Counted from the first letter of the stretch, positions 5,352 through 39,735 are shown. The stretch: 48,090 nt of DNA from Bryobacteraceae bacterium (GCA_035524535.1 DATKOS010000288.1:1-48090), one strand, 5' to 3'. Numbers and translations are program-made. Notes: a model not told the origin generated them from the letters alone.

Positions 5352-5382
5352 CGCCGGCGCCAAACTCGCGCCGCATCGCGCA

Positions 5383-6089: not shown

Positions 6090-6476
6090 TTAGGCTGCGT
6101 TCAGGAGTTCCTCTAGCGAATCGCTGCCATCTGCCTCGAACTCGTGACGGTCGGCGGCCTCCTGGCAGCGGATGCAATACTTCGTCCACGGCACTGCGTC
6201 CAACCGCTTCGGCTTGATGTCTTCCTCGCAGTGCATGCAGACGCCGTAGCTGCCATCGGCGACTCGGGCCAGCGCGCCTCTCACATCGTGAAGCAGGTTC
6301 GACCCGCGGTCGAGGTTGCGGATCGCAAGTTCACGCTCCCCCGCAAGCTGTACCTCATCCAGGGCATCCGGTGTTTTTTCGATAGCGATGTCTTCCCGGT
6401 TTCGGAGTCCGGCGGACAACTCGTTCCGCTTCGCCTCCAGCATCGCCTTGTATTTCTCTAAGTCGGTTCTGTTCAT
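6090..6476 (-). CDS. DksA/TraR-family C4 zinc-finger transcription factor
   Basis: 128 aa with a coiled-coil N-terminal part and an acidic tip (PDALDEV). The C4 finger is CMHCEEDIKPKRLDAVPWTKYCIRCQ. Confidence 0.85.
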   Translation of the reverse strand: MNRTDLEKYKAMLEAKRNELSAGLRNREDIAIEKTPDALDEVQLAGERELAIRNLDRGSNLLHDVRGALARVADGSYGVCMHCEEDIKPKRLDAVPWTKYCIRCQEAADRHEFEADGSDSLEELLNAA

Positions 6477-6939
6477 TTTGGTCCACCCCCTCCGGCGCTA
6501 CGGCCGGTTCATTCCTTTTTCAAGGCTTCTATTTCAACCTCCGCAAGACTATAGACGACTAAGCTGAGAGCAAAAGTTTCAGCTCGCAACCCATCTAGTC
6601 GAAAGAGCTACCGCAATCGATTGGCTCTCTCTCTGGCGCTCGCTTGCACTTTCGGAGCAATTCTGGCGCCAGAATAAATACTACCACTTTCGGCAACCCC
6701 TCTTCACGGTGGTGCCCGAATGATGCCTTACCCAAGCTTCCATCGCTCCCCCCTCTTATCGGCGGAAACAGGAATTTTTCCTAGGTTCTTGATCTCCGAA
6801 CCACCTATATATAGACGTTGGAGCCGCCCTTCCGTGGCAATTACAGCCTCGCTACCGACTCAAATCTACCAGACCATCGTGCGGCGCAGCCCGTTTCTAG
6901 CCACCATCGAAGCCTCAAGGAAAATGCAAAGGCTTTTAT

Positions 6940-6967
6940 TTGCAATAGTTTGAAATGATGCTAAATT
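6940..6967 (+). promoter_or_regulatory. Weak sigma70-like candidate (TTGCAA-16 nt-TAAATT) inside the long low-GC intergenic region
   Basis: ttgcaa at 6940-6945 and taaatt at 6962-6967. An imperfect palindrome, tcacgatcattgtga, lies immediately downstream. Confidence 0.2.
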
Positions 6968-7342
6968 AATCACGATCATTGTGACCGGCCCCCGCGGCCG
7001 AGCTCCGGGCAACCCGGCCCGAAGCGCTTCCGGCGCGCCGCCCCGTCCACCGGTCTGGAAAAAGCACCCGGCGGCCCACGAGCGCCGGATCGCGCCACAA
7101 ACTCACAAACCGCACGCCGCACGATGCCGCTCACCAGTGGTTTTCCCGATCCTGTGTGGGCAATTCCACCACCCCGAAGACGCACTCGGGTTAAGAAACT
7201 CACGCGTACCCTCTTCCTGAAGGCGCGATAATGGCTAGAGCAGCCGCAAGCCTGCTTTGGCTTCCACGTTTTTCGGGTTCTCTCGTCATCTTCTATAGAG
7301 ATAGGAACCTGAGGAACCTTGGAAACTGCCGTCTGCTGGCGC

Positions 7343-9601: not shown

Positions 9602-10459
9602 CTACCTGCGCTCCAGGGTCGCCTGAACCAGGTCTCCCAGTTGCTCCGCGCTGAATTCGTTCCCGTCCAGATCCCCCGCCAACCTTCCCTGGCGGTCAAT
9701 TACCACCGTGCGCAGGGAGTGCGTCAGCAGGCCTTCATCCTGCCAGAAGTTCAAGCCGAACTCGGCGCACACCGCCTTGACCTCGGTGAGCGAGCCGGTC
9801 AAGAAGTGCCACGTGTTCGCATCCGCCTTCCACGTCTTGCTGTATTTCGCCAGCACCTCCGGAGTATCCGTTCCCGGGTCGAACGAGACGCTCAGCAGGA
9901 TCAGGTCGCGGCCCATCTTGGCGGCGAAACGCCTGTTGAGCTGGCCGAAGTTGTTGGACATCCGGAAGCAGTAGTCCGGCAGGGGACAGCTCGTGTAGAG
10001 GAACGTGATGGCCACCACTTTTCCCGCGAATTGCGAAAGCGAAATCCGCTTGCGGGTCTGGTCGGTCAGGGTGAAATCGGCGATGGGCTGGCCCAGCTTC
10101 AGGGGGCTGACCCCGGCGTTCGGATCGAGCAGCGCCAATCGGCGCGCGCGGAACGCTTCGTCCGTCACGCTCTGAAAGCGGTGCTCGCGAAGGCTCTCCG
10201 CGTAAGAGCGGCCGCCATCCACCACCAGAGTGAAATCGATCTGCATGCCCGGCTGCACGCCGTCGAGCGCCTTCTCCTCGCGCACCGAATACGGCATGGC
10301 CATGGCGGCCATGTACCCCGGAATGGCTGCGCAAGACGCCACGAAGCTCTTGTTCGGCCGGTCCACCTTCAGCAGGATGCCCGTAACCTCGTATTGCTTC
10401 GCGCACCACGCCGGAGCCAAACACAGGCAAGCCGCCGCCGCGCAGGCCGCCGCTCTCAC
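9602..10459 (-). CDS. SCO1/SenC-family thiol-disulfide/copper chaperone with an N-terminal Met-rich CusF-like domain
   Basis: The thioredoxin-fold SCO core contains VVAITFLYTSCPLPDYCFRMS (CxxxC-type). The N-terminal domain reads YEVTGILLKVD...IPGYMAAMAMPYSV. I prefer the GTG start at 10459, which forms a GTGA overlap with the upstream stop; the track start at 10594 would overlap by 138 nt. Confidence 0.75.
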   Translation of the reverse strand: MRAAACAAAACLCLAPAWCAKQYEVTGILLKVDRPNKSFVASCAAIPGYMAAMAMPYSVREEKALDGVQPGMQIDFTLVVDGGRSYAESLREHRFQSVTDEAFRARRLALLDPNAGVSPLKLGQPIADFTLTDQTRKRISLSQFAGKVVAITFLYTSCPLPDYCFRMSNNFGQLNRRFAAKMGRDLILLSVSFDPGTDTPEVLAKYSKTWKADANTWHFLTGSLTEVKAVCAEFGLNFWQDEGLLTHSLRTVVIDRQGRLAGDLDGNEFSAEQLGDLVQATLERR

Positions 10460-21058: not shown

Positions 21059-21796
21059 GTGCGGCTGACTCTGGCTCTCCTCCTCGCTTTCGCCGCCCAG
21101 GCCCAGCAACCGCCGCCCGCGCGGCCGGAGTTCGAAGTGGTCTCTGTGAAACCAGGCGATCCGGCCAGACTCGCATCCGGCATGACTTTGCAGCCCGGCC
21201 GTCTGATCCTCCACAACGCTACCTTGAAGACCCTGATCCTGCAAGCCTTCCGCATTAGCGAATACCAGATCGCCGGCGGTCCCAACTGGACCGGCGCCGC
21301 GAAATTCGATATCGTCGCCAAGCTGCCCGCCGGCGCGCCGATGAACCAGTCCCCGGCCATGATGCAGACCATGCTGGAGGATCGCTTTCGGCTCAGGACG
21401 CACCGCGAGACCCGCCAGGTGCGCGAATACGCCCTTGTGCTCGCGCCGGGCGGCCCGAAATTCGAGAGCCTCGATGAGAACGACCACCAAGGAGCCGGAA
21501 GCATGACGAGTTTCGGCGGCGGAGCCGGCGAGATCCTGGGCCGCGGCAAGACCGCCCCGGAGCTTGCCGCCATGCTGGTTGACGCCGTCGAGGCGCCTGT
21601 GGTCGACCGCACCGGACTCACCGGCAAGTACGATTTCCACCTGAAGTACGCGCCGGTCTCCACTTCACCCGACGCCGACCCGGCTGTGCTTACCATCTTC
21701 GGCGCCGTTCAGAAGTTGGGCCTGAAGCTGAACGCCATCAAAGGCCCGGTGGAAGTTCTGGTGATCGACCACGCCGAAATGCCCTCTGTGAATTAG
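21059..21796 (+). CDS. TIGR03435-family (Solibacter-type) exported protein, paralog 1
   Basis: Signal peptide MRLTLALLLAFAAQAQQ. The motif PEFEVVSVKP is followed by DRTGLTGKYDFHLKYAP and VEVLVIDHAEMPS, as I recall for this acidobacterial family. Confidence 0.8.
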   Translation: MRLTLALLLAFAAQAQQPPPARPEFEVVSVKPGDPARLASGMTLQPGRLILHNATLKTLILQAFRISEYQIAGGPNWTGAAKFDIVAKLPAGAPMNQSPAMMQTMLEDRFRLRTHRETRQVREYALVLAPGGPKFESLDENDHQGAGSMTSFGGGAGEILGRGKTAPELAAMLVDAVEAPVVDRTGLTGKYDFHLKYAPVSTSPDADPAVLTIFGAVQKLGLKLNAIKGPVEVLVIDHAEMPSVN

Positions 21797-22001: not shown

Positions 22002-22727
22002 ATGCGCTTCCTGCTCCTCACGCTCTTCGCCCTCGGCGCCCAGGCCCAGCAACCGCCCGCCGGGCTGCCACGGTTCGAAGTGGTTTCGGTAAAGCCCAGC
22101 AACGCGCCCCGCGCGAGCTGGAGCTGGGGCACGCCGCCCGGCCGGGTCGTCATGCGGAACGTCACGCTCCAATTCCTGGTGACATACGCATACCACTTGA
22201 ACGACTATCAGCTCGATGGCGGCCCTAAGTGGCTGGATTCGGCGAGGTTCGATATCGACGCCAAGCTTCCCGACGGCGTGCCGATGAGCCAAGCTCCGGC
22301 TATGTTGCAGGCGATGTTGGAGGACCGGTTCCAGGTCAAAGCGCATCGCGAAACACGGGACGTCCGCGAATATTCGCTGGTCGTGGCCCAGGGCGGCCCC
22401 AGGTTCGTGGATCTCGATAAGAACGATAACGCCGGCGCAACCAGCTACACCGGCCCGAACGAAATCCTGGGCCGAGCCAAGACAGCTCCCGAGATCGCGG
22501 CAATGTTGATTGGTCCGGTCGGCGCCCCGGTCATCGACCGGACTGGCTTAACCGGGCAGTACGACTTCCACTTGAAATACGCACCGCTCTCAGTCTCGGC
22601 CGAAGCGGACCAGGGCTTGCCCACCATCTTCGGCGCTGTCCTGAAACTCGGCCTCAAGCTTGAATCCACCAAAGGCCCGGTGGAAGTAATGGTTATCGAC
22701 CGCGCGGAAATGCCCTCGGCCAACTGA
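22002..22727 (+). CDS. TIGR03435-family exported protein, paralog 2
   Basis: It aligns along its full length with 21059..21796 (PRFEVVSVKP, DRTGLTGQYDFHLKYAP, VEVMVIDRAEMPS). Confidence 0.8.
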   Translation: MRFLLLTLFALGAQAQQPPAGLPRFEVVSVKPSNAPRASWSWGTPPGRVVMRNVTLQFLVTYAYHLNDYQLDGGPKWLDSARFDIDAKLPDGVPMSQAPAMLQAMLEDRFQVKAHRETRDVREYSLVVAQGGPRFVDLDKNDNAGATSYTGPNEILGRAKTAPEIAAMLIGPVGAPVIDRTGLTGQYDFHLKYAPLSVSAEADQGLPTIFGAVLKLGLKLESTKGPVEVMVIDRAEMPSAN

Positions 22728-25878: not shown

Positions 25879-25892
25879 AACCCTAAAGGGTT
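25879..25892. terminator. Short hairpin AACCC-TAAA-GGGTT in the convergent gap; better as a minus-strand terminator
   Basis: The minus-strand reading is followed by TTGTTTTATT. The stem is only 5 bp plus imperfect extensions. Confidence 0.35.
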
Positions 25893-25895: not shown

Positions 25896-26246
25896 TCAGA
25901 GCCACGAAGTCCCCAGGCTGTAGAGCAGCGCCGCCAGCACGGCCAGCGTCACCAGCGTATAGGTCCTGTCGCGCCGCATCGCGAACACCGCCAGCGTCAG
26001 CGCCACGCGCGCCACCGGCGTGGCGATGAGCAGCAGCAGGCCCGCCATCACGGCCGCTTCCGGCCCCGCAAGCGCGCCCATCGAGCGAAGCCCGGTGACC
26101 CGCGCCACGAACTTCCCGTAATGCGGCGCCGCGCCCCCGCTGGCCGCCAACAGCCACGCGCCTCCGGCTAGCGCCACCGCCGCGGCCGCCGTCACGCCGC
26201 CGCGCAGCAACCGCCCGATCACCGCGTCCAGCCTCTCGTCCGTCAA
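25896..26246 (-). CDS. DUF1634-like small membrane protein
   Basis: 116 aa with several TM helices and a 4-nt overlap with the upstream TauE gene. This pairing is typical as I recall. Confidence 0.6.
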   Translation of the reverse strand: MTDERLDAVIGRLLRGGVTAAAAVALAGGAWLLAASGGAAPHYGKFVARVTGLRSMGALAGPEAAVMAGLLLLIATPVARVALTLAVFAMRRDRTYTLVTLAVLAALLYSLGTSWL

Positions 26247-27079
26247 CGCACCCCTCCCGAGAACCCGCTGTAGATCATCTCCACCGCCAGCGCGCCCACC
26301 ACGGCGGCGAACAGCATCCGCAGGGCCCGCGTCCTCGCCCCGGTTAGATGCCGCGCGCCCGCCAGCGATCCGCTCAGCACGCCCAGCATCACCGGCATGG
26401 CAAGCCCCGGCTCAATGTACCCTCGGCTTAGATAAATCCCCGCGCTCGCCGCCGCCGTCACCCCGATCATGAAGTTGCTGGTCGTCGTCGAGACTTTGAA
26501 CGGGATGCGCATCACGCGGTCCATCGCCAGTACCTTCATGGCCCCCGAGCCGATGCCCAGCAGCCCGGAGAGCAGCCCCGCCACGAACATCAGGCTGAAC
26601 CCACCCTTCACATGACGCACGCGGTACCGCACCGGCCCCTCCGGCCCCGGATACGCGCCATCCAGGGCTAGCCTGCTGGCAAGCGCGTCCGCTTCCTCCG
26701 CTGCAGCTTCTCGCGGCCCGCGCAGGGAAATGGCCGCGGAGTAGAGCAGCGCCGCGCCGAATACCACCGCCAAAGAGGAAAGCGGAATGACGGTGACCAG
26801 GTGCGCGCCCACGATCGCGCCCAGCGTCGTGGCCACCTCCAGGAACATCCCCACGCGAATGTTCGAGAACCCTTCCTTCACGTACGCCGCCGCGGCGCCC
26901 GAGGAAGTGGCGATCACCGAGACCAGCGACGCACCCATCGCGTACCGCATATCGACGCCCAGGAGCAGCGTGAGCGCCGGCGTAACCACCACGCCGCCGC
27001 CCAGCCCCGTCAGCGCGCCCAGGTATCCCGCCGCGGCCGAGATGCCGTACACGATGCCGGAGAACTCGAGCACGTTCAT
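26243..27079 (-). CDS. TauE/SafE (DUF81) family anion exporter
   Basis: 278 aa, polytopic. It carries the duplicated motifs LTGLGGGVVVTP and LLGIGSGAMKV. Confidence 0.85.
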   Translation of the reverse strand: MNVLEFSGIVYGISAAAGYLGALTGLGGGVVVTPALTLLLGVDMRYAMGASLVSVIATSSGAAAAYVKEGFSNIRVGMFLEVATTLGAIVGAHLVTVIPLSSLAVVFGAALLYSAAISLRGPREAAAEEADALASRLALDGAYPGPEGPVRYRVRHVKGGFSLMFVAGLLSGLLGIGSGAMKVLAMDRVMRIPFKVSTTTSNFMIGVTAAASAGIYLSRGYIEPGLAMPVMLGVLSGSLAGARHLTGARTRALRMLFAAVVGALAVEMIYSGFSGGVR

Positions 27080-27229: not shown

Positions 27230-28333
27230 CTAGAGCGAGTTCAGATAGGCGATCAGGTCCGCCATCTGCTGCGCGTCGAAGCGCGGCCAGGAGATGCTCT
27301 TCTGCTTCATGCTTTGCAGCATCGCCGGCCCGTGCTGCCACAGCGCGGATACCATGGACACGTCCGAGTAAGCGTCCTTGCCCCTCGCCAGGCTGGGGGC
27401 CCCGCTGCCCGGCTGATTGTGGCAGGAGGCGCAGCTCTTCTGCGCGAACACCTTCTTGCCGCGCGCCGCGTCTCCGCTGCCCTGGAAATACTCGCGCTCC
27501 CAAACGTAGCCGAGGATCCGCCGCATCTCATCGGGCGTCAGCGTCGGTGGCGGATTCTTCATGTTCGGCTGGTGATTCCACATATCCGCCGCAATGTCCG
27601 TGAGGCTCTGGTTGCGCAGCTTGGTCTCCAGCGCATTGGCCCCGGTGTGGCAGCCCGCGCACCCCTTCGACACGAACAGGCTTTGGCCGGAATCCGACGC
27701 CGTCAGTTCGAACACCCTCGGCACGCCTCGGGTCTCCGGCAGGTTCTGAAGGTACACCAGCATGTCGCTGAGTTCCTGGCCGGTCAGTTGCGACCACTCC
27801 AGCTTCTTCTGCGCAAACGCTTCCCGCATGCGCGGCCCGTGGTTCCACATCTGGTCGGCCAGCAGGCTGGGGTCGGCCAGCGATTCCCACTTGGCCACCG
27901 GCGGCGCGCCCGGGTAGCTCGAAGTCGTAGTCCCGTGGCACTCCGCGCAATGCCTCGCCGCGAAAGCCCTCTTCCCGCGCGCCGCATCGCCCGGCGCTTC
28001 AAAGTAGTGCGCCGCCACGAAATAGGCGAACAGATCCGCCGATTGCTCCGGCGTCAGCGAAGGCCGCTCAATCCCCTTGGCCTGAATGCCGACCCACATG
28101 TCCGGCGCGTGGTTCCACATCAGGCTTGCCATCGCCGTCGGCGTGTAGTCGCGGTCAATCCGCTTCCCGAGATCCGGCGCCGAGTGCCCGCCTCTGCCGT
28201 TTACGCTGTGGCACGCAACGCATTGCTGCGTTTGAAACAATTGCGACCCGCGCACCGCGTCTCCGGAAGGAATGCCCGCCGCAATTGCTCCTCCAGCCGC
28301 CAGCGCGACGCCTACCAGGCCAAGCTTGAACAT
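27230..28333 (-). CDS. Periplasmic protein made of four tandem class-I (monoheme) cytochrome c domains
   Basis: Signal peptide MFKLGLVGVALAAGGAIAAG from ATG 28333, with the SD GGAGA upstream. Four units of G(D/S)...CxxCH (CVACH, CAECH, CAGCH, CASCH) are each followed by a (M/L)W(N/Q)H(A/G/Q)P motif that supplies a likely axial Met. It starts 8 nt downstream of the porin-like gene. Confidence 0.8.
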   Translation of the reverse strand: MFKLGLVGVALAAGGAIAAGIPSGDAVRGSQLFQTQQCVACHSVNGRGGHSAPDLGKRIDRDYTPTAMASLMWNHAPDMWVGIQAKGIERPSLTPEQSADLFAYFVAAHYFEAPGDAARGKRAFAARHCAECHGTTTSSYPGAPPVAKWESLADPSLLADQMWNHGPRMREAFAQKKLEWSQLTGQELSDMLVYLQNLPETRGVPRVFELTASDSGQSLFVSKGCAGCHTGANALETKLRNQSLTDIAADMWNHQPNMKNPPPTLTPDEMRRILGYVWEREYFQGSGDAARGKKVFAQKSCASCHNQPGSGAPSLARGKDAYSDVSMVSALWQHGPAMLQSMKQKSISWPRFDAQQMADLIAYLNSL

Positions 28334-28341
28334 CGTGTCTC

Positions 28342-30408
28342 CTATCTGGTCAGTTTGACGCCCGTCTGGAACAGGTGCGTCTGGAAGCCCTGGAATAGCA
28401 GCAACTGATCGCTGTAGCCGTACCAGCGCCATTCGGTGTTCCAGTATACGTGCTTCCCGGCCGGTATGGAAAGGCGCGCCAGCGGTTCGTAATACCGCGA
28501 AGCCTCCGTGCCGTTCACGATGGCCATGGACCCGCCCATCGTAAGCTTGGCGGCCACGCCCCGGTACGGCGGCAGATTCACCTGCAGCGCGGATGTGGCG
28601 ATGTGCGCGTTGGCGTTATAAACGGAAACGTCCGGGGTGAGGAACGGCGGCAGCAGGAAGTTAATCGAAGACGACATCGTCGCCCGGTCATACTCCGCCA
28701 GCAGCGCCACGTACTTGCCACCCTTCGGCGTCCAATTAATGGAAGCCGAATTGTCGCGGCTTAGGTAGTCGAACTGCGAAATCTTGATCGGGTCGTGATT
28801 CTCCAGCGCGGCGAAATTCGCCTGGAACGTCAGCGTCGGTTTCACCTGATAGCGCGCCCTGGCGCGCACTCGGGTGTAGTTGTAGAGGCTCGTGGTGAAG
28901 TACGCCTGCGCCGTGGATGCCCCTTCGTAGTCCAGATTCACCGAAAACTTCCGCGCCGGGTGATAGTTGACTCCCGCCAAAGCCACTTGGCGGCTGAGCT
29001 TGCCCGGCTCGTATAGCCCGATCTGGCTCTGCTCGCTGGCCAGCACGGAGGCGTTGCCCCATTCGTTGCGATAGCCCCCGCGCAGCGTCAACTTCTTGCC
29101 GATGTCATAGTACAACTGAGCCTCGGCCCGGTTGTAATTCACCGCCTGCACCGGCGCCAGAATCGTGGTCATGTTCACGTTGGAGGTCTGCGTCAAGAAC
29201 GCCGTCGCCAGGCTGGTGTAGGCGGCATCGTGAAACCGGTCCGTGTTCCATGACGCAGTAATGCGCAAAGCCCGCAACGGGTGCGCGTCAATGCCCGCGT
29301 TGCCGGACACATGCGGCTTGTTGGCCGACCCGGTGGCGATATCCGATTGCCCGCTGTAAACCAGCAATTGGTTCAACAGCACGAAATTCCCCGACGCCGC
29401 GTCCTGATAGTTAATCGTCGTCTTCGGCTGGCTGTACAGGAACTGCGCGTAGAGGTTCAGCCACGGCAGCGGATTGGCCGTCAGCAGTCCGCGGGTGTAG
29501 TAGCTGTGCGCCCGGATGCCGTACGCCTGCAGCAGGCTATTGAGCTGCAGCGTCTGCCCCAGCAGCGGCGTAGTCGCGTCTCCCGGAGTCGGCGTCGCGT
29601 CGTAGGCGGAATCGCTGTCCCGGAATACCGTGCCGCCTTCTTCGAGCGTCACGTGGAAGTTGTGCAGTTCCACCCGTAGCCCGCCCCGGTAGTTGCTGGT
29701 GTGGTCCAGAAGGCTGGAAGCCACGGGGAAGGTGGTCGTGGAACCCATCGGATACGTCGAGATCCCCGTCCCGGAACCGGAATTGCGGTCGAACATCGCG
29801 TAGGGCACAATCCGCTTGTCCGGCCTCAGCGTCAGGCTGATGCTCAGGTTCTTGCGGTATTGGTTGAACCACTGCTGGTTAACGCCCGCCGGAGCTAACG
29901 GATTCGCATAGGCCGGCATGGCGCTGTAGTAGAGAATGTTGCTGTAATCCAGCCGGAAATCGTAGTCGCCCAGTTTCCTGGCGTCCACGTGCGCCGTGTT
30001 GTAAGGATCGCCGCCCCAATTGTTCGCGCTCACGTTCAGCACGTCGAAAAGCTTATGGGTCGGGTCCGTGAAGCTGAAATCCAGCCCGAAGATCCGCAGC
30101 CCCGGGCTGAGATCCACAATGCTCTGATACGCCGGCCCGCTGCCGTTGAGGCTCGTGCGAAACCGGTACCCAATATCCACGCTGCCGTGAAACCACGGCT
30201 CGGCGCTGGGGGCGGGGTTGTCTGCCGCGGCCGCCGCGGCCGGAGCAGCCTCGGTTGTGGATGCCGCGGCCGCTGGGCTTCCCACCGCGGGTGCGGCTGG
30301 AGCGGACGCGGGCGCTTGCGCTGCGCCACCGGCTTGGGCCGTCGGGCTGGCCGGCGCTTGCGCCAGGGCCGCCGCCGAGCCAATCAGGATCGCAATCAGG
30401 GCTTTCAT
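28342..30408 (-). CDS. Large outer-membrane beta-barrel candidate (MtrB/PioB-like by size and context)
   Basis: Signal peptide MKALIAILIGSAAALAQA from ATG 30408, which forms an ATGA overlap with the upstream decaheme gene. A ~55-aa Ala/Pro linker follows, then ~620 aa of alternating amphipathic Y/F/W-rich strands (YDFRLDYSN, LSISLTLRP, YRGGLRVELHNFHVTLE, LTFQANFAAL...). There are no heme motifs. Confidence 0.65.
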   Translation of the reverse strand: MKALIAILIGSAAALAQAPASPTAQAGGAAQAPASAPAAPAVGSPAAAASTTEAAPAAAAAADNPAPSAEPWFHGSVDIGYRFRTSLNGSGPAYQSIVDLSPGLRIFGLDFSFTDPTHKLFDVLNVSANNWGGDPYNTAHVDARKLGDYDFRLDYSNILYYSAMPAYANPLAPAGVNQQWFNQYRKNLSISLTLRPDKRIVPYAMFDRNSGSGTGISTYPMGSTTTFPVASSLLDHTSNYRGGLRVELHNFHVTLEEGGTVFRDSDSAYDATPTPGDATTPLLGQTLQLNSLLQAYGIRAHSYYTRGLLTANPLPWLNLYAQFLYSQPKTTINYQDAASGNFVLLNQLLVYSGQSDIATGSANKPHVSGNAGIDAHPLRALRITASWNTDRFHDAAYTSLATAFLTQTSNVNMTTILAPVQAVNYNRAEAQLYYDIGKKLTLRGGYRNEWGNASVLASEQSQIGLYEPGKLSRQVALAGVNYHPARKFSVNLDYEGASTAQAYFTTSLYNYTRVRARARYQVKPTLTFQANFAALENHDPIKISQFDYLSRDNSASINWTPKGGKYVALLAEYDRATMSSSINFLLPPFLTPDVSVYNANAHIATSALQVNLPPYRGVAAKLTMGGSMAIVNGTEASRYYEPLARLSIPAGKHVYWNTEWRWYGYSDQLLLFQGFQTHLFQTGVKLTR

Positions 30409-31460
30409 CGCAGCAACCCCCGATCCACGTAAGAACCGTGTATTTGCTGGTGGCAGACCGTACAGTTGCGGAACATCGGAGATAACAGATTGTGGAACGC
30501 CGGGGGAACGCTTCCAATCGTGGACGCCGACGCCGCCGTTGGCGTGGGCAGATTCGTATGGCACTCCAGGCACACGAACCGAACGTCGTTCCGGGTCAGC
30601 ATCTTCGTGTTCGGCGATCCGTGCGGCATGTGGCACGCCGTGCACCCGTCCGTTTCCACCGGCGGATGCTCATATACGAACGGCCCCGCCAGGTTGCCAT
30701 GGCACTTCAAGCAGCCCGGCTCGTTGGCGCTCACTGTTTGCAGATTGTGAGGCAGGGAACTGCCGTGCGGATTGTGGCAGTCCACGCAAGACATCGCGCC
30801 TTCCGGCAGCTTGTGCCGGAAAGGCTGCTGGAAACTGGCCCATACGTCGGTGTGGCACGAAGCGCAAAGCTGGTTGATGTCCGCCTTCTTGCGCGCCACC
30901 AGCCCGTTGGGCCCATTCTTGTGCACCGAGTGGCACGCCACGCAGGCTACTTCGTTCTTCGCATGGCTGCCGTTGATCCGTCCTACTTGCGTGGGCTTGT
31001 TCAGGTGACAAACCAGGCAAGTCGCGTCGGCCTCCGCCGGCGGGAGCTTGGCTGGGTTCCGGATGTCCGCCGCGTCCATCGAATCCGCGTGCTTGCTTCC
31101 GGGACCGTGGCAGGATTCGCAGGCCTTCGTGTCGAACTTGTACTTCTTGTCCGCCTCCACCAGGTGGTGCGGATTCTTCTGGAAAGCGTTGTAAATGTCT
31201 TCGTGACACCCCTGGCAGATTTCCGAGCCGACGTATTCCGCCGGTTTGTTGTCCTTGGGGGCGGGAGCGGAGGCAGGAGCGTCCTTGGAAGCAGGAGCGC
31301 CCTTGGAGGCAGGGGCGTCCTTGGAAGCAGGAGCGCCCTTCTGATCCTGGGCGCCCCATAAGGTTGCGGACAGCAGCGTGGCCGTTGCCACTATAACCAG
31401 CCACCGCGCCCTCGAGGGGCGCGGCGGTATTTGCTGGGCGCTTGGCAATGGCCAGTGCAC
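30405..31460 (-). CDS. Periplasmic decaheme c-type cytochrome (MtrA/DmsE/PioA/MtoA-like)
   Basis: 351 aa with ten CxxCH motifs: CQGCH, CESCH, CLVCH, CVACH, CASCH, CVDCH, CLKCH, CTACH, CLECH and CTVCH. The last is followed by QQIHGS. GTG start with GGAG 6 nt upstream. Confidence 0.8.
   Translation of the reverse strand: MHWPLPSAQQIPPRPSRARWLVIVATATLLSATLWGAQDQKGAPASKDAPASKGAPASKDAPASAPAPKDNKPAEYVGSEICQGCHEDIYNAFQKNPHHLVEADKKYKFDTKACESCHGPGSKHADSMDAADIRNPAKLPPAEADATCLVCHLNKPTQVGRINGSHAKNEVACVACHSVHKNGPNGLVARKKADINQLCASCHTDVWASFQQPFRHKLPEGAMSCVDCHNPHGSSLPHNLQTVSANEPGCLKCHGNLAGPFVYEHPPVETDGCTACHMPHGSPNTKMLTRNDVRFVCLECHTNLPTPTAASASTIGSVPPAFHNLLSPMFRNCTVCHQQIHGSYVDRGLLR
31273..31340 (-). repeat. 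In-frame 18-bp tandem repeat (~3.8 copies) encoding (APASKD/APASKG)n in the N-terminal linker of the decaheme
   Basis: gcaggagcgtccttggaa / gcaggagcgcccttggag / gcaggggcgtccttggaa / gcaggagcgccctt... encodes KGAPASKDAPASKGAPASKDAPAS. Confidence 0.85.
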
Positions 31461-31490
31461 GGTGGACTCCTTCTAGTTAGCGTAAGCCGG

Positions 31491-33653
31491 TTACAGACCG
31501 GCGTGGACCGAAGAAGCGCTATAAGCCCCGGACGCGCCGTGGCATACGCTGCACGATTCGCCGAACTTCGGATCCGTGTTCGAACTCGCGTGAGCGTACG
31601 TCGCCGTATCCAGATGGCAGGCCGTGCAGGCCGACGTCGTCGCCGGCGTCGGATTCTCCAGGCCCTGCGGATCCGTCACCGCAAGCTTCCCGATCGGGTC
31701 GTTGTTCTCCGTTCCCGCTGCATGGCACATCTCGCAGATGGTCGTATCGGAGACCCCGCCGGTCGGGCTCATCGCCGGATACAGCGTCCCGGAGAAATCG
31801 TTGACGCTGCCGCCGTGACCCACTACCACATAGGTGGCGTTGTATTGCGCCATGTTCACGCCGCTATGGATCTTGTGAACCATCAGCGCGAAGTTGATCG
31901 CCTGCGGCGGCTGCGACGGATAAGGCGCCGGCGCCGTCGGACGCGTCGTATAGTCCGTGTTGTTCGGGTTGTGGCACACCGGGCAATACGTCACGTCGTT
32001 GCGCAGGGATCCGTGAACTTCCAGGTCCGTGTGGCAGTGGTTGCAATTGGCTTCCAACACCACCGTGCGGCGCGGCGCCACCTTGGAGCCGTCCACCGAG
32101 AAGTTGATCACCGAATTGTGCGCGCTGTAGGTAGCTGCGGTCGCCGCCGTGGTACCTGGCAGCAAGGTCGTGCTTAGCCGCGCTTCCACCCCGATCGTGT
32201 AGGTTCCCGTCGCGTTGGCCGGAATCCCATGCGTGAAGGTGTAGGTGCAAACCCCCGCGCTGCTGCACGTCGCGCCCGTGGCGCTTTCCGTCACGTAGCC
32301 CGGCGTCGAGGTCAAATCGGAACCGAAGCTGACGTTGCCGTAATCGGTCGTCGGACCCGTCATCGTCAGCGACAGCGAACCGCTGTTCGCCTTCAAATAG
32401 GTCATGGTCACCGGCTGGCCCGCATTGTTGGTCGCCGTGAACGTGACGGTCGGCTTCTGCCCGGCCACGCCATTGGTCACCTGGTTGAGCGTGATGTTGA
32501 TGCCCGGAACCGAGGTCGAGTACTGCGGAATCACGTGCGCTCCCACAATCGACGCGTCAAAATCCAGCTCGCCCTGCGGAATGTGGCAGCCGGCGCACTG
32601 CGTATCGTCGATCTCCGGCAGGTTCACGTGGTTCTGGCCAGTCGCGAAATTGATGTTGGAGTGGCAGCCGCCGCAAGCCGCGCGGTCCGGATGCATCTCC
32701 CAGCGGTTGGTCTGCGCCGCTCCATTCTTCGGGTTGTGGCAGGTCTTCGCGCAGTTGCGAACATCCGGAGGATAAACCACCCCCGTCCAGCTATCCACCG
32801 CATTGCCGAAGCCCACGATGGAGTACGGCGTGGTCGACTGGATCGTCGGGAACGAGCTGCCAATGTGGATCTGGTGCGCTAGTACCGGCATGTCCAGCGT
32901 ATTTCCCGTGTTCGGATCTACCGTCTGCGGGGTATGGCACATGATGCACAGGTCCACGCCTCGGCGGGAACCGCCGTGAAACGCCAGTTGGTAGTGGCAC
33001 GTGTTGCAGTCCGCCGTCCGCACGATGTCGCGTGGCGCCGGGGTCCCGCCCGCAGGCACGAAGTCGTAAGTCGTGGACGCATAGTTGGTACCCAGGTTCC
33101 ACGTGGTAAGGTTGCGGGAACCGTAGATGCCAATGCGATGCGTGGCAGTCGGGTCGAAGCCCGACGGAGCCGTGGTCTTGAACGTGTACGTGTAGGTGCC
33201 GACCGCCACCGTGGCCGTGGTCCCGCCCGAATCGGCCGAGGCCTGGGTCGCCGTCGCCCCTCCCGTTACCGCCGTCGCCGTCCGGGTTACGTAAGAAACA
33301 TACTGCGACTGGCCCTTGGGAATGTAAGCGCAAATCAGACTCGCCGAAATCTTTCCGGGCGTCTGAACCCCGGCCGTGTCAAGGGGCAATCCGGTCGGAT
33401 CGGTCGTGGTGTAGGTCACGCTGATCACGCCGCTGCTCGAAATATTGGCCGAGGTTACCGTGAACACCAGGCCGGGGTTGACGTACTGGATCATGGCGTT
33501 GGATGCATAAGCCGCCGGATCGTGCGCGTCAAACCGCTCCTGGGGAGTAAGCCTGGCCTTATCCGCTCCGCTCAGCAGCAACACCGAGGCAGCCACCACC
33601 AGAACCACCAGGATGTAGCGGCGTATCGCGAGAGCTGAAGAAGAAGTCCGCAT
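31491..33653 (-). CDS. OmcA/MtrC-like decaheme cytochrome (two pentaheme modules alternating with two heme-free beta-type domains)
   Basis: 720 aa. Heme motifs 1-5 (CNTCH, CIMCH, CAKTCH, CGGCH, CAGCH) lie at about aa 215-370. Motifs 6-10 (CNHCH, CPVCH, CEMCH, CTACH, CSVCH) lie at about aa 530-705. Each block is preceded by a ~150-180-aa Thr/Ser/Gly-rich heme-free segment. There is an N-terminal hydrophobic signal or anchor without a lipobox Cys. Confidence 0.7.
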   Translation of the reverse strand: MRTSSSALAIRRYILVVLVVAASVLLLSGADKARLTPQERFDAHDPAAYASNAMIQYVNPGLVFTVTSANISSSGVISVTYTTTDPTGLPLDTAGVQTPGKISASLICAYIPKGQSQYVSYVTRTATAVTGGATATQASADSGGTTATVAVGTYTYTFKTTAPSGFDPTATHRIGIYGSRNLTTWNLGTNYASTTYDFVPAGGTPAPRDIVRTADCNTCHYQLAFHGGSRRGVDLCIMCHTPQTVDPNTGNTLDMPVLAHQIHIGSSFPTIQSTTPYSIVGFGNAVDSWTGVVYPPDVRNCAKTCHNPKNGAAQTNRWEMHPDRAACGGCHSNINFATGQNHVNLPEIDDTQCAGCHIPQGELDFDASIVGAHVIPQYSTSVPGINITLNQVTNGVAGQKPTVTFTATNNAGQPVTMTYLKANSGSLSLTMTGPTTDYGNVSFGSDLTSTPGYVTESATGATCSSAGVCTYTFTHGIPANATGTYTIGVEARLSTTLLPGTTAATAATYSAHNSVINFSVDGSKVAPRRTVVLEANCNHCHTDLEVHGSLRNDVTYCPVCHNPNNTDYTTRPTAPAPYPSQPPQAINFALMVHKIHSGVNMAQYNATYVVVGHGGSVNDFSGTLYPAMSPTGGVSDTTICEMCHAAGTENNDPIGKLAVTDPQGLENPTPATTSACTACHLDTATYAHASSNTDPKFGESCSVCHGASGAYSASSVHAGL

Positions 33654-33778
33654 ACCTTTAAATCTCCAATCCTGAAGACTTTCTATTCAAAAAAACGATC
33701 ATGGCCCGAGAGACAACCCGGCGCCGGGGCAAAACGAGCTAGATGTGTATGCAAACCGCCCGCCAAAGGTCCCAGAGG

Positions 33779-33793
33779 ACAAACAAGATGCCA
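33779..33793 (-). promoter_or_regulatory. Weak sigma54-like -24/-12 element (TGGCAT-N5-TTGT) upstream of the MtrC-like gene
   Basis: The minus strand reads TGGCATCTTGTTTGT about 125 nt upstream of ATG 33653. The -12 GC is GT, and no enhancer-binding protein gene is in the window. Confidence 0.2.
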
Positions 33794-33860
33794 AAATCTT
33801 TTGTTATCAGCAACGTTGGAAAATCCCTCATCGTGTCCGGTTTCTCCACATTAGTCGTAA

Positions 33861-33892
33861 ATGGGTGAAAGCCCAGGAGGGCATGGGTGAAA
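33861..33892. promoter_or_regulatory. Perfect 10-bp direct repeat ATGGGTGAAA x2 with 22-bp spacing (candidate regulator binding site)
   Basis: Copies at 33861-33870 and 33883-33892 lie in the 540-bp divergent intergenic region, about 210-240 bp upstream of the MtrC-like start. Confidence 0.3.
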
Positions 33893-34082
33893 TTCCGCTC
33901 CGCACTGCGGTTCGCCGCCCCACGTCCGCCGCGCAGGCAGCGGCCCCCTGGTGGCGCCGGCATGGGAAATCCCCCTTCGCCTTCTATTATTCTTTCTATT
34001 CTAATAAAATTCATTTTAAATTGAAAGCCATCAGCCGTGCCAACGTGCGCGTTCCGACACTCTATCTATCTTGAAATGAAGT

Positions 34083-34091
34083 TGTTACAAT
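34083..34091 (+). promoter_or_regulatory. Candidate extended -10 box TGtTACAAT for the VOC-family gene
   Basis: It lies about 100 nt upstream of ATG 34194, which has a GGAG SD. Confidence 0.3.
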
Positions 34092-34193
34092 CTGCCGACC
34101 GTGGGACGTGGCTGCCCCACGGCCCCACCCGAACAACTTCTTTGTCCTCAGGCCGCCTCGCAATAATATAGGTAGAGAAGGAGACGCCATCTC

Positions 34194-36055: not shown

Positions 36056-37558
36056 TCACTCCCGGCCGCCAACCGCCGCCGCGCTCAGCGCATCCAGAGC
36101 TTTCTGAATCACCGGATCGCGCCGCGCCTGCACCTCATCGCCCTTCTCCACCCCGAACGCTTGGTTGAAGATCTCCGTCAGCAGCCGGTTCGACATGAAA
36201 TCCGTCTCCGCCGTCCATTCCGTTTCGCTCGGCTGTATCCGCCGGTCCAGAAGAAATGTCCGGAAACGGCCCATCAGCGCCGGCGTAATTTCGAAGTCCG
36301 CCGGGATTTTGTTGCCGCTCAGGTACTCCGTGGCGAAATCCGGGAACGCGCCGCTATCTTCCAGCACCGCGCGCAGCCGGTTCATCGCTCTCGGGTACAC
36401 CACAATGTCCGGCTGAATGCCGCCGCCCCCCGTCACCGTCCGTCCCGCGTCCGTGTGAAATTCGGCCTCGCCGTTGGGGTGCGCCGTCGCGTCCCCCAGC
36501 TCGAACTTCGAAGGGTCCAGCGGCTTTTGGATGGAGCGGCCGCTCGGCGTATAGTAAAGCGCCGTGGTCAGCGCCAGCCCGGTGCCTTCGCTCAGCGGAA
36601 ACATGTTCTGCACCAGGCCCTTCCCGAAGCTCGGCTCGCCCAGAACCGTGGCGCGGTCGTGGTCCTGCATCGCGCCGGTCACAATCTCGGAGGCGCTCGC
36701 CGATTTCCCGTCAATCAGAATCGCCATCCGGAACTGGTACGGCTCCGCGATCGTGGGCACCGTCTGCGTCGTCTCCGGCACGTGCCGCCCCCGCAGCGTC
36801 ACCACCTTCGATCCCGGCGGCAAAAACAGCGAGCACGTCTGAACCGCCGCGTCCACCAGTCCGCCCGGATTGCCGCGCAAATCCAGCACCAGCCCCGCAA
36901 GGCCGCTCCCGCCCAGCTTTTCGATGGACTTCTTGATCAGGTCCGCCGTGTCGCCCTCAAAGCTCGTCACGTGAATGTACCCGATCCCCGCCCCCACGAA
37001 AAACGCCCGGTCCACGCTCGGAGCCGATTGGTCCTCCGGAATCAGCGTCAACGCCGCCACCCCAGCCGCGCCGGGATGCCGCACCACCAGGCGCGCCGTG
37101 TTCTGCCGCGACTCGCTCAGCAACTCGGCGATTTGGTCCTGGTCGAGCCGCGCAATCTCATACCCGTTCACGGCCAGCAAATCGTCTCCAGGCGTCAGCC
37201 CCGCCTTCGCCCCCGGCGTCCCTGGCAGCACCTGCAGCACAATCACGCGCGCCGGCAAAATCGAAACCACCGTGCCGAAGCCCTTCTGCGTGGAGCGCTC
37301 CATCCGCTTCATCTGCTGGAAATTGTCCGGATCGAAAAAGATCGAGTGCGGGTCCAGATTCCGCAGCAGGCCGGGAATCGCACCCTGATACAGCGCCTGG
37401 TCCGGCGTAATCGCATCGGCTGCATTCGCTTCCACCAGCGCGTAAGCGTCCGTGATGGTCTTGATTCGCGTTTCCAGCAGGTCCGCCGCCCGCCCCAGGC
37501 AGGCGGTGGCGCAAAGCGCGGCGAGTATCGGGAGCGGACGGGGCATCGAACGTGCCAT
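36056..37558 (-). CDS. S41-family C-terminal processing peptidase with a PDZ domain
   Basis: The PDZ domain reads VLQVLPGTPGAKAGLTPGDDLLAVNG. The catalytic region reads LVLDLRGNPGGL...SASASEIVTGAMQD...GEPSFGKGLVQ. ATG 37558 or 37546 is the likely start (signal MARSMPRPLPILAALCATACLG). Confidence 0.85.
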   Translation of the reverse strand: MARSMPRPLPILAALCATACLGRAADLLETRIKTITDAYALVEANAADAITPDQALYQGAIPGLLRNLDPHSIFFDPDNFQQMKRMERSTQKGFGTVVSILPARVIVLQVLPGTPGAKAGLTPGDDLLAVNGYEIARLDQDQIAELLSESRQNTARLVVRHPGAAGVAALTLIPEDQSAPSVDRAFFVGAGIGYIHVTSFEGDTADLIKKSIEKLGGSGLAGLVLDLRGNPGGLVDAAVQTCSLFLPPGSKVVTLRGRHVPETTQTVPTIAEPYQFRMAILIDGKSASASEIVTGAMQDHDRATVLGEPSFGKGLVQNMFPLSEGTGLALTTALYYTPSGRSIQKPLDPSKFELGDATAHPNGEAEFHTDAGRTVTGGGGIQPDIVVYPRAMNRLRAVLEDSGAFPDFATEYLSGNKIPADFEITPALMGRFRTFLLDRRIQPSETEWTAETDFMSNRLLTEIFNQAFGVEKGDEVQARRDPVIQKALDALSAAAVGGRE

Positions 37559-37658
37559 TGCGGCTAGTTCAATTCTAGCGAACCCCGGCTTTCCGTCCCC
37601 GCTTTTCCCGTGCGTCCCCTCACCCGCGCGCCCGGACTTACCGCACAATGGTAGTGGC

Positions 37659-38348
37659 ATGCGGATTCTTCTTGCCGAGGACGAAGCGCGCGTGGCGGCG
37701 TTTATCGCCAAGGGCCTGCGTGAGCAGTCCTATGCCGTGGATGTCGCCGGCGATGGCCGCCAAGCCGCCTACCTCGCCGGCGTCAACGAGTATGACCTGG
37801 TCATCCTGGACGTCATGCTCCCGCTCAAGGATGGCCACGCCGTCTGCCGCGAATTGCGCGCCGCCGGTCTGCGCACCCCCATTCTCATGCTCACCGCCCG
37901 CGATGCCGTCGACGATCGCGTGGCCGGCCTGGACGCCGGCGCCGACGACTATCTCACCAAGCCCTTCGACTTCAAGGAGCTCCTCGCCCGCCTCCGCGCC
38001 CTCCTCCGCCGCCCCCGCGAGGTTCGCCCCGCCTCCCTTCGCGTGGACGACCTGACGCTCGATACCGCCAGCCATGCCGTCTCCCGCGCCGGCAAGCCCG
38101 TCAATCTCACCGCCAAGGAGTACGCCCTCCTCGAATTCCTCGTCCTCAACCAGGGCCGCGTCATGGGACGCCAGCAGATCGCCGAGCATGTCTGGGATGA
38201 GAGCTTCGACGCGTTCTCCAACGTCATCGATGTCTACGTCAAGCGTCTCCGCGCCAAAATCGAAACCAGCCCCGCCCACCGCCTCATTCGCACCCGCCGC
38301 GGCGAAGGCTACATCCTGAGCGCGGCCCGCGAGGCGGCCGATGATTAG
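37659..38348 (+). CDS. OmpR/PhoB-family response regulator
   Basis: The receiver domain reads MRILLAEDE...DLVILDVMLP...TARD...KPF. The winged-helix domain reads LTAKEYALLEFLVLNQGRVMGRQQIAEHVWD...IDVYVKRLRAKI. Confidence 0.9.
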   Translation: MRILLAEDEARVAAFIAKGLREQSYAVDVAGDGRQAAYLAGVNEYDLVILDVMLPLKDGHAVCRELRAAGLRTPILMLTARDAVDDRVAGLDAGADDYLTKPFDFKELLARLRALLRRPREVRPASLRVDDLTLDTASHAVSRAGKPVNLTAKEYALLEFLVLNQGRVMGRQQIAEHVWDESFDAFSNVIDVYVKRLRAKIETSPAHRLIRTRRGEGYILSAAREAADD

Positions 38349-39735
38349 AAGCCTCCGCGCGCGCCTCACCGCCTGGTATCTGGCGCTCTTCTCGCTCCTC
38401 TTCGTTGCCTTCAGCGTCTTCCTCTACGGCTTGCTGGCCAGCGGCTTGCGTGAGCGCGTGGACAACGGTCTGCGCACCGATACGGACACCGCCGCCGGCA
38501 TGTTCGAGGACGAGTTGGACGAAGCCAAGGGCGATGTCCAAACCGCCGCCTCGGAAACCGCCAAGGGCATGCGCGTGCACGATGCCTTGGTCGCCGTTGT
38601 CGCCGATGGCGTGCTCCTCGCCGCCACGGACCCTCTGCAATTGCGCGGAACCGGCGGCTTGGCCGCCCTCGTGGCCCATCCGCCTCCCGATGGCGAAACC
38701 GGGGAACTGCCGCAATTCGGAGCCTGCGGCGCCCGCGCCGTGGTGCGCCGCGAACTCGTCGGCGCCCGCCAGGTCCTCGTGGTCACCCTGGCGCCGCTCG
38801 ACGCCATCAAGGCCGAGCTACGCGTCACCCGCCGCGTCATCTTCGTCGCCTTGCCCTTGCTGCTGGGCATCGCGGGTCTCGGCGGCTATCTTCTCACCAA
38901 GCGCGGCCTCGCGCCCCTCGCCGTCATGGCCGTGCAAGCCCGCGAAATCGGCGGTTCCAGCCTGGACCGCAGGCTGCGCATCGGTTCCGCGGCCGAAGAG
39001 CTGGAAGCCCTGGCGGCGTCGTTCAATGAGTTGCTCGCCCGCCTCGATCAATCCTTCGGCACCATGCGCCGCTTCGTCGCGGATGCTTCCCACGAGCTGC
39101 GAACCCCCCTCTCCGTCATCCGCGGTGAGGCGGACGTCGCCCTGGCCCAGGATCGCACCGCCGCCTCCTACCGCGAGTCCCTGGCCATCGTCCTCGACGA
39201 AGCCCGCCGGCTCTCCCGCCTCGTGGACGATCTGCTCAACCTCGCGCGCGCCGATAGCGGCCGCGTCAAGCTCCAGACTCAGGACTTCTACCTCGACGAC
39301 CTCCTGGCCGAGTGTTGCCGCTCCGCCCAGGCCATCGCCGGCCCTCGCGGCGTGGAGGTGGAATGCCTCTGCGCCGAAGACGCCCCCTTCCGCGGCGATG
39401 AAGAGCTCCTCCACCGCCTGGTGATGAACCTCCTCGATAACGCCATCCGCTACACCCCGTCCGGGGGCAAAATCACCGCCGCATTGGAAGCCGGAGACGC
39501 CGACTTCCGCATCACCGTGACCGACACCGGAATCGGCATCGCGCCCGAAGCCGCGCCCCACGTCTTCGAGCGCTTCTACCGCGCGGACCAAGCCCGCTCC
39601 CGCAAGGACGGAGGCTTCGGCCTCGGCCTCTCCATCGTCAAATGGGTTGCCGAAGCCCACCGCGGAGGCGTCCAATTGGCCAGTCAGCCCGGAGTTGGAA
39701 CCGCCTTCACCGTAACCCTGCCCCGCCAATCCTGA
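38341..39735 (+). CDS. Sensor histidine kinase (2 TM, HAMP, HisKA, HATPase_c)
   Basis: The H-box is FVADASHELRTPLSVIRGE, the N-box is LLDNAIRYTP, and the G-boxes are DTGIGI and GFGLGLSIV. It overlaps the response-regulator gene by 8 nt. Confidence 0.9.
   Translation: MIRSLRARLTAWYLALFSLLFVAFSVFLYGLLASGLRERVDNGLRTDTDTAAGMFEDELDEAKGDVQTAASETAKGMRVHDALVAVVADGVLLAATDPLQLRGTGGLAALVAHPPPDGETGELPQFGACGARAVVRRELVGARQVLVVTLAPLDAIKAELRVTRRVIFVALPLLLGIAGLGGYLLTKRGLAPLAVMAVQAREIGGSSLDRRLRIGSAAEELEALAASFNELLARLDQSFGTMRRFVADASHELRTPLSVIRGEADVALAQDRTAASYRESLAIVLDEARRLSRLVDDLLNLARADSGRVKLQTQDFYLDDLLAECCRSAQAIAGPRGVEVECLCAEDAPFRGDEELLHRLVMNLLDNAIRYTPSGGKITAALEAGDADFRITVTDTGIGIAPEAAPHVFERFYRADQARSRKDGGFGLGLSIVKWVAEAHRGGVQLASQPGVGTAFTVTLPRQS

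Follow-up and report, generated by a model that had tools for sequence, protein, structure and literature searches.

Porin-cytochrome conduits of the MtrCAB type have already been assigned to acidobacteria at a genomic level. The closest described system is the Group 5 MtrCAB of Acidobacteriia, which a survey of MtrCAB across bacteria found in five genomes of Bryobacterales and unclassified members, where a gene encoding a tetraheme cytochrome is located directly downstream of mtrB and no gene for CymA is found nearby (Baker et al., 2022, mBio 13:e02904-21, PMC8805035). Acidobacterial homologues of MtrA and MtrC had previously been proposed to participate in the reduction of Fe(III) and humic substances based on metagenomes of arctic peat (Lipson et al., 2013, PMC3669403), and no complete mtr operon was found in 24 cultured strains (Eichorst et al., 2018). 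Here we have analyzed a stretch of DNA of 48,090 nucleotides from a Bryobacteraceae bacterium (GCA_035524535.1, DATKOS010000288.1:1-48090), in the following termed the window, which contains four adjoining genes coding for homologues of MtrC and MtrA, an MtrB-like β-barrel and a tetraheme cytochrome c. An earlier note on this DNA, made from the sequence alone, had interpreted the locus as an mtrCAB operon with the C-A-B gene order of Shewanella, which is borne out by family scores, the MtrB fold of the modelled barrel and the conservation of the gene order. Its implication that architecture and clade could be new does not hold, as both have been described by Baker et al. (PMC8805035); given this publication in 2022, the novelty of the locus is low.

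The operon in the window shares with Group 5 the taxon, the order mtrC-mtrA-mtrB, a gene after mtrB for a tetraheme cytochrome that is predicted to be periplasmic, the lack of a nearby CymA-like gene and the lack of an adjacent mtrC duplicate. Nothing essential separates the two, and we thus classify the operon as a further member of this group, based on the identity of orthologues and the shared architecture. An identity of the encoded proteins as a porin-cytochrome conduit of the MtrCAB type, within the Group 5 lineage of acidobacteria, is in our view very probable. The explanation as a whole, which in addition assigns to this conduit a mainly outward direction of electron flow, is one that we favor with moderate confidence.

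Gene organization and decaheme cytochromes

The four open reading frames (Table 1) and their tight junctions, as read from the sequence in the earlier note, were confirmed on the minus strand. The genes for the MtrC and MtrA homologues are separated by a gap of 30 nucleotides with a GGAG inside, the latter overlaps with the barrel gene by four nucleotides in an ATGA, and a gap of 8 nucleotides, at which a GGAGA overlaps the stop codon of the barrel gene, precedes the gene of the tetraheme protein. In all four cases, the GC content amounts to 0.77–0.81 at third and is near 0.5 at second codon positions, in a genome of 62–69% GC, which marks all of them as genuine genes. Moreover, the cassette is kept across dozens of genomes and its arrangement is thus far beyond what would be expected by chance. 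We conclude that mtrC-mtrA-mtrB-cyt(4xc) is a single translationally coupled operon.

The product of the first gene aligns over residues 72–717 with positions 3–672 of the 672 positions of the OmcA/MtrC model TIGR03507, with a score of 501.2 bits compared to a cut-off of 209.3. The model PF22113, which covers domains II and IV of MtrC/MtrF, is matched twice, and the matches among proteins of known structure are MtrF, OmcA and MtrC, all in line with the four-domain plan that had been proposed for this gene. The protein contains ten heme sites in two groups of five (residues 216–357 and 537–705), a count and layout that agree with the previous reading, although the third site has to be corrected from CxxCH to CxxxCH (CAKTCH, residues 301–306, positions 32736–32753 of the window). 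The same spacing, in form of either CAGSCH or CAKTCH, is found at this site in 15 of 67 MtrC orthologues, including the protein of the window, and points to a variant heme-attachment site that is specific for a subclade. In contrast to this partial conservation, Cys 463 and Cys 469 (CX5C, positions 32247–32267) are invariant in all 67 orthologues and may be the counterpart of the disulfide in domain III of Shewanella MtrC, whose cysteine pair we take to be spaced as CX8C.

A further peculiarity concerns the N-terminus of the MtrC homologue (33549–33653), which carries a Sec-type signal peptide and no lipobox cysteine. The first cysteine of the protein is located at residue 108 and is unconserved, and none of the orthologues whose N-terminus was inspected contains a cysteine following the hydrophobic segment, so that the MtrC of this clade would not be a classical lipoprotein. 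In Shewanella, MtrC and OmcA carry a lipoprotein signal peptide with a lipobox cysteine, a feature that lies outside the TIGRFAM definition of the family.

The second protein contains ten CxxCH motifs, with a C-terminal part that includes the sequence CTVCHQQIHGS, and scores with 257.9 bits against the DmsE-family model TIGR03508, whose cut-off is 192.2. Its best match of known structure is 6R2Q_A (3e-33 over residues 59–348), a chain of the Mtr complex that corresponds to MtrA but was mislabelled by its depositors. The protein thus is, as initially proposed, a decaheme cytochrome of MtrA/DmsE size. A better fit to the periplasmic partner of a reductase, which the earlier note had named as a possible outcome, was not found, since the score of 258 bits for the DmsE/MtrA family contrasts with 18–26 bits for NrfB-type models and 31 bits for NrfH. 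On the model of the GSU2203 decaheme, the protein reaches 227 bits, which falls short of both the cut-off of that model (325) and the score obtained with the DmsE family. Identities as NrfB, OTR, HAO or Geobacter Pcc cytochrome were ruled out on these model scores.

Both the MtrA homologue and the barrel protein contain a low-complexity tract behind their signal peptide. In the former, this tract is rich in Ala, Pro, Ser and Lys, with KDAPAS/KGAPAS repeats (residues 41–72, 31245–31340), and in the latter it is an Ala/Pro-rich segment of about 55 residues (residues 17–68, 30204–30360) that is predicted to be disordered, with pLDDT values below 50. The sequence of both tracts varies among orthologues and they probably serve as flexible periplasmic linkers.

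The barrel protein and the tetraheme cytochrome

The third gene encodes a protein with a signal peptide and no cysteine, whose relationship to MtrB is not evident from its own sequence. It does not match any model of NCBIfam (E ≤ 0.1) or Pfam (E ≤ 10), including TIGR03509 and PF11854 (MtrB_PioB), a search of the PDB with phmmer did not return any match, and a profile of 42 sequences compared to the PDB did not find MtrB (6R2Q_B). A profile search of 1.84 billion representatives shows that the family is large, with E ≤ 1e-3 being reached by 1585 of them at 50% identity, and ten of the more distant full-length relatives that were scanned do not show a Pfam match either. The lack of matches of the protein itself would be expected if it were an outer-membrane protein of another kind, for instance a transporter, that is encoded beside two cytochrome genes by coincidence, in which case no wire would span the membrane.

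We consider this last possibility the most improbable of the alternatives, as evidence from orthologues, structure prediction and gene order points to MtrB. PF11854 is matched by 15 of the 42 orthologues, and in four that were checked, at 49–54% identity to the protein of the window, the scores of 27–34 bits exceed the cut-off of 23, with the matches being in register and confined to the N-terminal third, where they also align with the model. TIGR03509 is matched weakly by seven of the 42, and one of these is named MtrB/PioB family protein by NCBI. An AlphaFold2 model built on the orthologues (pLDDT 73) is all-β with 27 strand segments, which is consistent with a barrel of 26 strands and is above the 20 strands that had been named beforehand as the least for a large barrel of this kind. 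In a Foldseek search of the PDB, the top match of this model is MtrB (6R2Q_B, E 1.2e-14, TM scores 0.62/0.66), followed by TonB-dependent receptors of 22 strands with TM scores of about 0.4. The protein does not contain a plug domain and does not match a TonB box family (Pfam, E ≤ 10), and its gene overlaps with mtrA by four nucleotides in an arrangement that is conserved across loci. Since direct sequence searches failed, the assignment to MtrB is based on the transitivity of orthologues and on the structure model. According to this model, the protein is a divergent MtrB-like barrel of indirect homology, which itself lies outside the MtrB/PioB sequence definition. The description of the gene in the earlier note as MtrB/PioB hence stands with respect to the signal peptide, the absence of hemes and the barrel fold, but not with respect to the sequence models TIGR03509 and PF11854. 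The accessions TIGR03507, TIGR03508 and TIGR03509, as given in the earlier note, are correct.

The fourth protein starts with a signal peptide, behind which four class-I cytochrome c domains are arranged in tandem, as apparent from its four CxxCH motifs and the alignment of the domains with each other, in agreement with the previous description. In each domain, the CxxCH is followed about 45 residues later by a (M/L)W(N/Q)HxPxM motif. Both motifs are conserved in 71 orthologues and the methionine of the second is likely the axial heme ligand. The Pfam families Cytochrom_C and Cytochrome_CBB3 match the protein in three to four stretches, and its nearest sequence neighbours are QcrC, the cytochrome c subunit of actinobacterial bc1 complexes, FixP/CcoP and NorC. 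No other protein of the cassette is conserved to the same degree, identities among the top matches being 63–82%. AlphaFold predicts the overall structure with confidence (pLDDT 79.5, pTM 0.74), and a Foldseek search of the PDB did not identify any analogue of the entire chain, the matches being restricted to single class-I domains of NorC and mitochondrial-type cytochromes c with non-significant E-values.

Related loci and direction of electron flow

To characterize the distribution of the cassette, we have scanned one genome per GTDB species for relatives of the barrel protein. A barrel of this type was found in 181 species-representative genomes, and the locus counts given in the following refer to the best 80 of these. 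All but one of the 80 loci are from Bryobacterales, Bryobacteraceae, Solibacteraceae, Terriglobia or other metagenome-assembled genomes (MAGs) of Acidobacteriota, including Sulfopaludibacter and the peat MAG SbA3, which agrees with the Solibacter/Bryobacter-type origin that had been suspected from the sequence. Many of them originate from peat, bog, fen, palsa or permafrost according to the titles of their records. In the closest species-representative loci, identities are 65–71% for MtrB and 75–79% for MtrC and the tetraheme protein, and values for orthologues from Bryobacterales range from 41 to 79%. Wherever the contig reaches far enough, the order C-A-B-tetraheme is found in nearly all of the 80 loci. 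The MtrA homologue is encoded directly upstream of the barrel in every locus with flanking sequence, and the tetraheme gene, in loci carrying it, starts between –3 and +32 nucleotides from the mtrB stop codon. The flanks of the cassette differ between genomes. The exception to the acidobacterial distribution is a complete cassette on a contig labelled Verrucomicrobiia (DATJYJ010000205.1), and one orthologue of the tetraheme protein is labelled Verrucomicrobiae; these labels reflect either a binning error or a transfer outside Acidobacteriota. A full cassette is also present in Candidatus Sulfopaludibacter sp. MAG_CO124 (JARLGM010000152.1, approximately positions 914–7244), a sulfate-reducing acidobacterium with published oxic and anoxic metatranscriptomes, for which the text of the respective paper is silent on Mtr (Dyksma and Pester, 2023, PMC10564751).

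This conservation bears on the question whether the module would instead serve another terminal reductase, for DMSO, nitrite or sulfur compounds, in a manner resembling DmsEF or Pcc systems, without transfer of electrons to minerals or humic substances. In Shewanella, DMSO reductase is likewise served by decahemes of the MtrA family, the MtrA homologue reaches 227 bits on the GSU2203 model, and a gene of the TauE/SafE family, located 150 nucleotides downstream of the operon, recurs in 14–15 of the 80 loci. Conversely, no gene for a catalytic reductase is found within 8 kb of the cassette in any of the 80 loci, the GSU2203 score does not reach its cut-off, NrfB-type scores are far lower still, and a surface cytochrome of the MtrC family stands in the place of the reductase. 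An association of homologous clusters with a soluble reductase, as considered in the earlier note, is thus not observed, the barrel being linked in every locus with sufficient flank, and we regard a function of this kind as highly improbable.

The recurrent neighbours of the cassette in the 80 loci are only regulators, the TauE/DUF1634 gene pair and a pentaheme cytochrome. In about 33 loci, a HisKA_3 histidine kinase and a response regulator of the NarL/LuxR type are encoded 3–5 kb 5' of mtrC (for example at 2337–4111 of locus L061), often beside a small conserved coiled-coil reading frame on the opposite strand, and in 14 loci a regulator of the Crp/Fnr family is found downstream of the cassette. 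The gene of the pentaheme protein, which comprises about 475 residues, is present in nine loci of deep-branching relatives (L069, L072, L073, L075, L076, L077, L078, L080 and L083, at about 11.0–12.6 kb in each), where it directly follows the tetraheme gene or, in the two loci without the latter (L078 and L080), mtrB. With two N-terminal membrane helices, a NapC/NrfH-like motif and a match to the NrfH model at 9e-15, this protein is a candidate for a quinol dehydrogenase encoded inside the cluster. The NarL-type pair, the Crp/Fnr regulator and the pentaheme gene are all absent from the window. Other loci differ in their content of mtrC, with two full-length tandem paralogues in at least four loci (L031, L034, L037 and L053), and no mtrC within 7–8 kb upstream of mtrA, mtrB and the tetraheme gene in L044 and L060, resulting in a layout resembling MtoAB. 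The duplication of mtrC, its absence and the pentaheme gene go beyond the description of Group 5.

In the mechanism that we propose, the decaheme MtrA homologue would be threaded through the MtrB-like barrel of about 26 strands in the outer membrane, with the MtrC homologue docking on its outer end to contact MtrA at the cell surface. In this way, 20 bis-histidine-ligated hemes would bridge the outer membrane, and the 23 histidines of the MtrA and 27 histidines of the MtrC homologue are sufficient for such ligation. The tetraheme protein would shuttle in the periplasm, connecting MtrA to the respiratory chain of the inner membrane and replacing CctA, FccA, PdsA or MtoD of other Mtr lineages. 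Under anoxia in peat or wet soil, respiratory electrons would be transferred onto Fe(III) or Mn(IV) minerals or humic substances, and the conduit would in principle be reversible. We consider outward flow the likelier direction because mtrC is retained, the habitats include peat, regulators of the Crp/Fnr family and NapC/NrfH-like genes are neighbours of the cassette in relatives, a cultured relative reduces Fe(III), and acidobacterial decahemes have been linked to the reduction of Fe and humic substances in arctic peat (Lipson et al., 2013, PMC3669403). The cultured relative is Paludibaculum fermentans, which belongs to the same order and contains many multiheme cytochromes (PMC8407742).

Besides the failed sequence matches of the barrel, several observations weigh against this proposal. 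The absence of a lipoprotein cysteine in MtrC leaves its retention at the surface unexplained, no gene for a quinol dehydrogenase of the NapC/NirT family is found in the approximately 8 kb to each side of the operon, and our literature search found no experimental work on an acidobacterial Mtr conduit. With respect to the direction of flow, the mtrC-less loci L044 and L060, which combine mtrAB with the tetraheme gene, resemble the MtoAB and PioAB systems of oxidisers. Finally, class-I domains with a conserved methionine usually have positive potentials, and a protein composed of such domains would thus be a poor donor to the low-potential bis-histidine hemes of MtrA, which argues for inward flow.

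The same conduit could accordingly be envisaged to work in reverse, with Fe(II) outside the cell, reduced humics or other cells as electron source. MtrC and MtrA would pass the electrons on to a high-potential tetra-domain cytochrome, from which they would reach a terminal oxidase or, uphill, the quinone pool, in the way that has been proposed for MtoAB-MtoD and PioAB. Inward flow in general appears unlikely to us, albeit clearly less so than the alternatives discussed above, and we judge this particular route in much the same way. In its favor are the four class-I domains of the tetraheme protein with their conserved CxxCH and distal methionine motifs, the similarity of its sequence to cytochromes c associated with oxidases and bc1 complexes and the absence of mtrC from two loci, as in iron oxidisers. 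Many of these acidobacteria are, in addition, aerobes or microaerophiles. The same direction is suggested by the lack of an adjacent CymA-like gene, in the window as in Group 5, and by the gene flow that Baker et al. (2022, PMC8805035) report between Group 5 and Group 4, a betaproteobacterial group with iron oxidisers among its members. Conversely, MtrC is kept in almost all loci, deep-branching relatives add a gene resembling NapC/NrfH-type quinol dehydrogenases, regulators of the Crp/Fnr family adjoin the cassette in 14 loci, and the habitats are mostly anoxic peat. Heme potentials, moreover, cannot be read from a sequence, and some class-I cytochromes with His/Met ligation are of low potential. 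We thus retain outward flow as preferred direction.

A more far-reaching possibility, which we consider doubtful and somewhat less probable than inward flow as such, is that in the abundant Bryobacterales of peat and soil MtrCAB would mainly serve for electron uptake, with Fe(II) or reduced humics as donors, and pass the electrons via the high-potential four-domain cytochrome to oxygen, or that it would switch its direction with the redox state. If true, these bacteria would form a previously unrecognized guild of neutrophilic or acid-tolerant oxidisers of extracellular electron donors. As a variant of this possibility, MtrC, not being a lipoprotein, may be released as a diffusible extracellular shuttle.

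In peat, permafrost and wet soils, where the reduction of Fe(III) and humic substances competes with methanogenesis, Bryobacterales and Solibacteraceae belong to the most abundant bacteria. That at least 181 genomes at species level contain a conserved Mtr conduit suggests a direct part of these organisms in extracellular redox cycling. Such a role contrasts with the textbook picture of aerobic heterotrophs, a point that Lipson et al. (2013, PMC3669403) and Baker et al. (2022, PMC8805035) have already made from genomes and metagenomes. The interest of the system lies mainly in the direction of electron flow, the tetra-domain cytochrome and the ecological weight of the host clade.

Surroundings of the operon and comparison with described conduits

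The region 5' of mtrC, which faces a divergently transcribed gene of the glyoxalase family, is presumed to contain the promoter of the operon. A scan for the sigma-70 consensus did not identify a promoter in this region, and a single weak half-match to an FNR/CRP-like site with two mismatches (34021–34034) is within chance expectation. A consensus scan of the window found one promoter-like site inside the barrel gene, and terminator-like structures are at chance level except for a plausible hairpin with T-run that follows the DUF1634 gene (Table 1).

Table 1. Features of the window discussed in the text, with positions counted from its first nucleotide.
Feature	Position	Strand	Remarks
mtrC homologue, predicted surface decaheme cytochrome	31491-33653	minus	720 residues, ATG start
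mtrA homologue, predicted periplasmic barrel-inserted decaheme cytochrome	30405-31460	minus	351 residues, GTG start
Gene of divergent mtrB-like outer-membrane β-barrel (modelled)	28342-30408	minus	688 residues, ATG start
Gene of clade-specific tetraheme cytochrome, predicted periplasmic ('c-cyt group 5' of Baker et al.)	27230-28333	minus	367 residues, ATG start
Presumed promoter/regulatory region 5' of mtrC	33654-34193	minus	non-coding, ~540 nucleotides
TauE/SafE-family transporter gene	26243-27079	minus	150 nucleotides downstream of the tetraheme gene
DUF1634 gene	25896-26246	minus	followed by hairpin and T-run at 25879-25892
Membrane-anchored tetraheme cytochrome c	1585-2106	minus	~25 kb from the operon
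NrfC/DsrO/TtrB-like 4Fe-4S protein	834-1574	minus	same module at the 5' end
NrfD/DsrP-like integral membrane protein	1-824	minus	same module, cut by window edge
Two adjacent DUF3738 paralogues	21059-21796, 22002-22727	plus	
Reading frame with CusF-like copper-binding and SCO1/SenC domains	9602-10594	minus	

The operon is flanked by housekeeping genes encoding DnaB, UvrB, TrpRS, UppS, CdsA, an S41 protease and a two-component system of the OmpR type (37452–39735). The downstream TauE/DUF1634 pair is located near the cassette in only 14–15 of the 80 loci, being directly adjacent to it in L044 and L060, the latter of which shares its downstream synteny with the window. As a rule, the pair is accompanied by the same downstream housekeeping genes, for an FAA hydrolase and a methyltransferase, so that its recurrence is explained more simply by inherited synteny, and we have rejected it as a functional part of the conduit.

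At the 5' end of the window, a membrane-anchored tetraheme cytochrome is encoded together with NrfC- and NrfD-like proteins. Modules of the NrfC/NrfD type exchange electrons between quinol and periplasmic cytochromes, and SirCD is partly able to replace CymA in Shewanella. From its sequence, the module is plausibly a quinol:cytochrome oxidoreductase, and thus a candidate for the inner-membrane partner of the conduit, although nothing links it to the operon. Among other genes, the two DUF3738 paralogues would fit the taxonomic assignment, as this family is strongly expanded in Acidobacteria of the Solibacter type. SCO1/SenC proteins deliver copper to heme-copper oxidases, and the protein combining such a domain with a CusF-like domain is a probable copper chaperone for an enzyme of this kind.

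Compared to conduits outside Group 5, the operon shares with MtrCAB of Shewanella (6R2Q, S. baltica; Edwards et al., 2020, PMC7198977) a four-domain decaheme MtrC, a decaheme MtrA, a barrel of about 26 strands and the C-A-B gene order. It differs in the barrel, which is about 12% identical to Shewanella MtrB in a structural alignment and not matched by its sequence models, and in MtrC, which lacks the lipoprotein cysteine and contains a CX5C pair and a CxxxCH at its third heme site. As the barrel protein does not contain any cysteine, it also lacks the N-terminal CXXC that is reported for gammaproteobacterial metal reducers. These four differences, namely the non-lipoprotein MtrC, its CX5C, its CxxxCH and the cysteine-free barrel, are small and were not reported in the literature text that we searched. 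On the periplasmic side, a class-I tetra-domain protein would replace CctA/FccA as partner, and no CymA gene is adjacent.

The porin-cytochrome complex Pcc of Geobacter (OmbB-OmaB-OmcB, GSU2203-type) follows the same logic of a periplasmic multiheme protein, a barrel and a multiheme protein at the surface. There, however, the surface cytochrome is OmcB-like, whereas in the window it belongs to the OmcA/MtrC family, and the score of the MtrA homologue is below the GSU2203 cut-off.

With MtoAB-MtoD-CymA(MtoC) of Sideroxydans and PioAB of Rhodopseudomonas, the operon has in common a core of MtrA- and MtrB-type proteins with a barrel devoid of CXXC and, in case of Mto, an adjacent periplasmic cytochrome c of class-I type. 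In contrast to these systems, it contains the surface cytochrome MtrC and no MtoC/CymA gene within the cluster. The periplasmic cytochromes differ as well, MtoD being a monoheme protein with presumably bis-histidine ligation, whereas its counterpart in the window consists of four fused domains with methionine-containing motifs. This tetraheme class-I cytochrome constitutes the lineage-specific part of the system.

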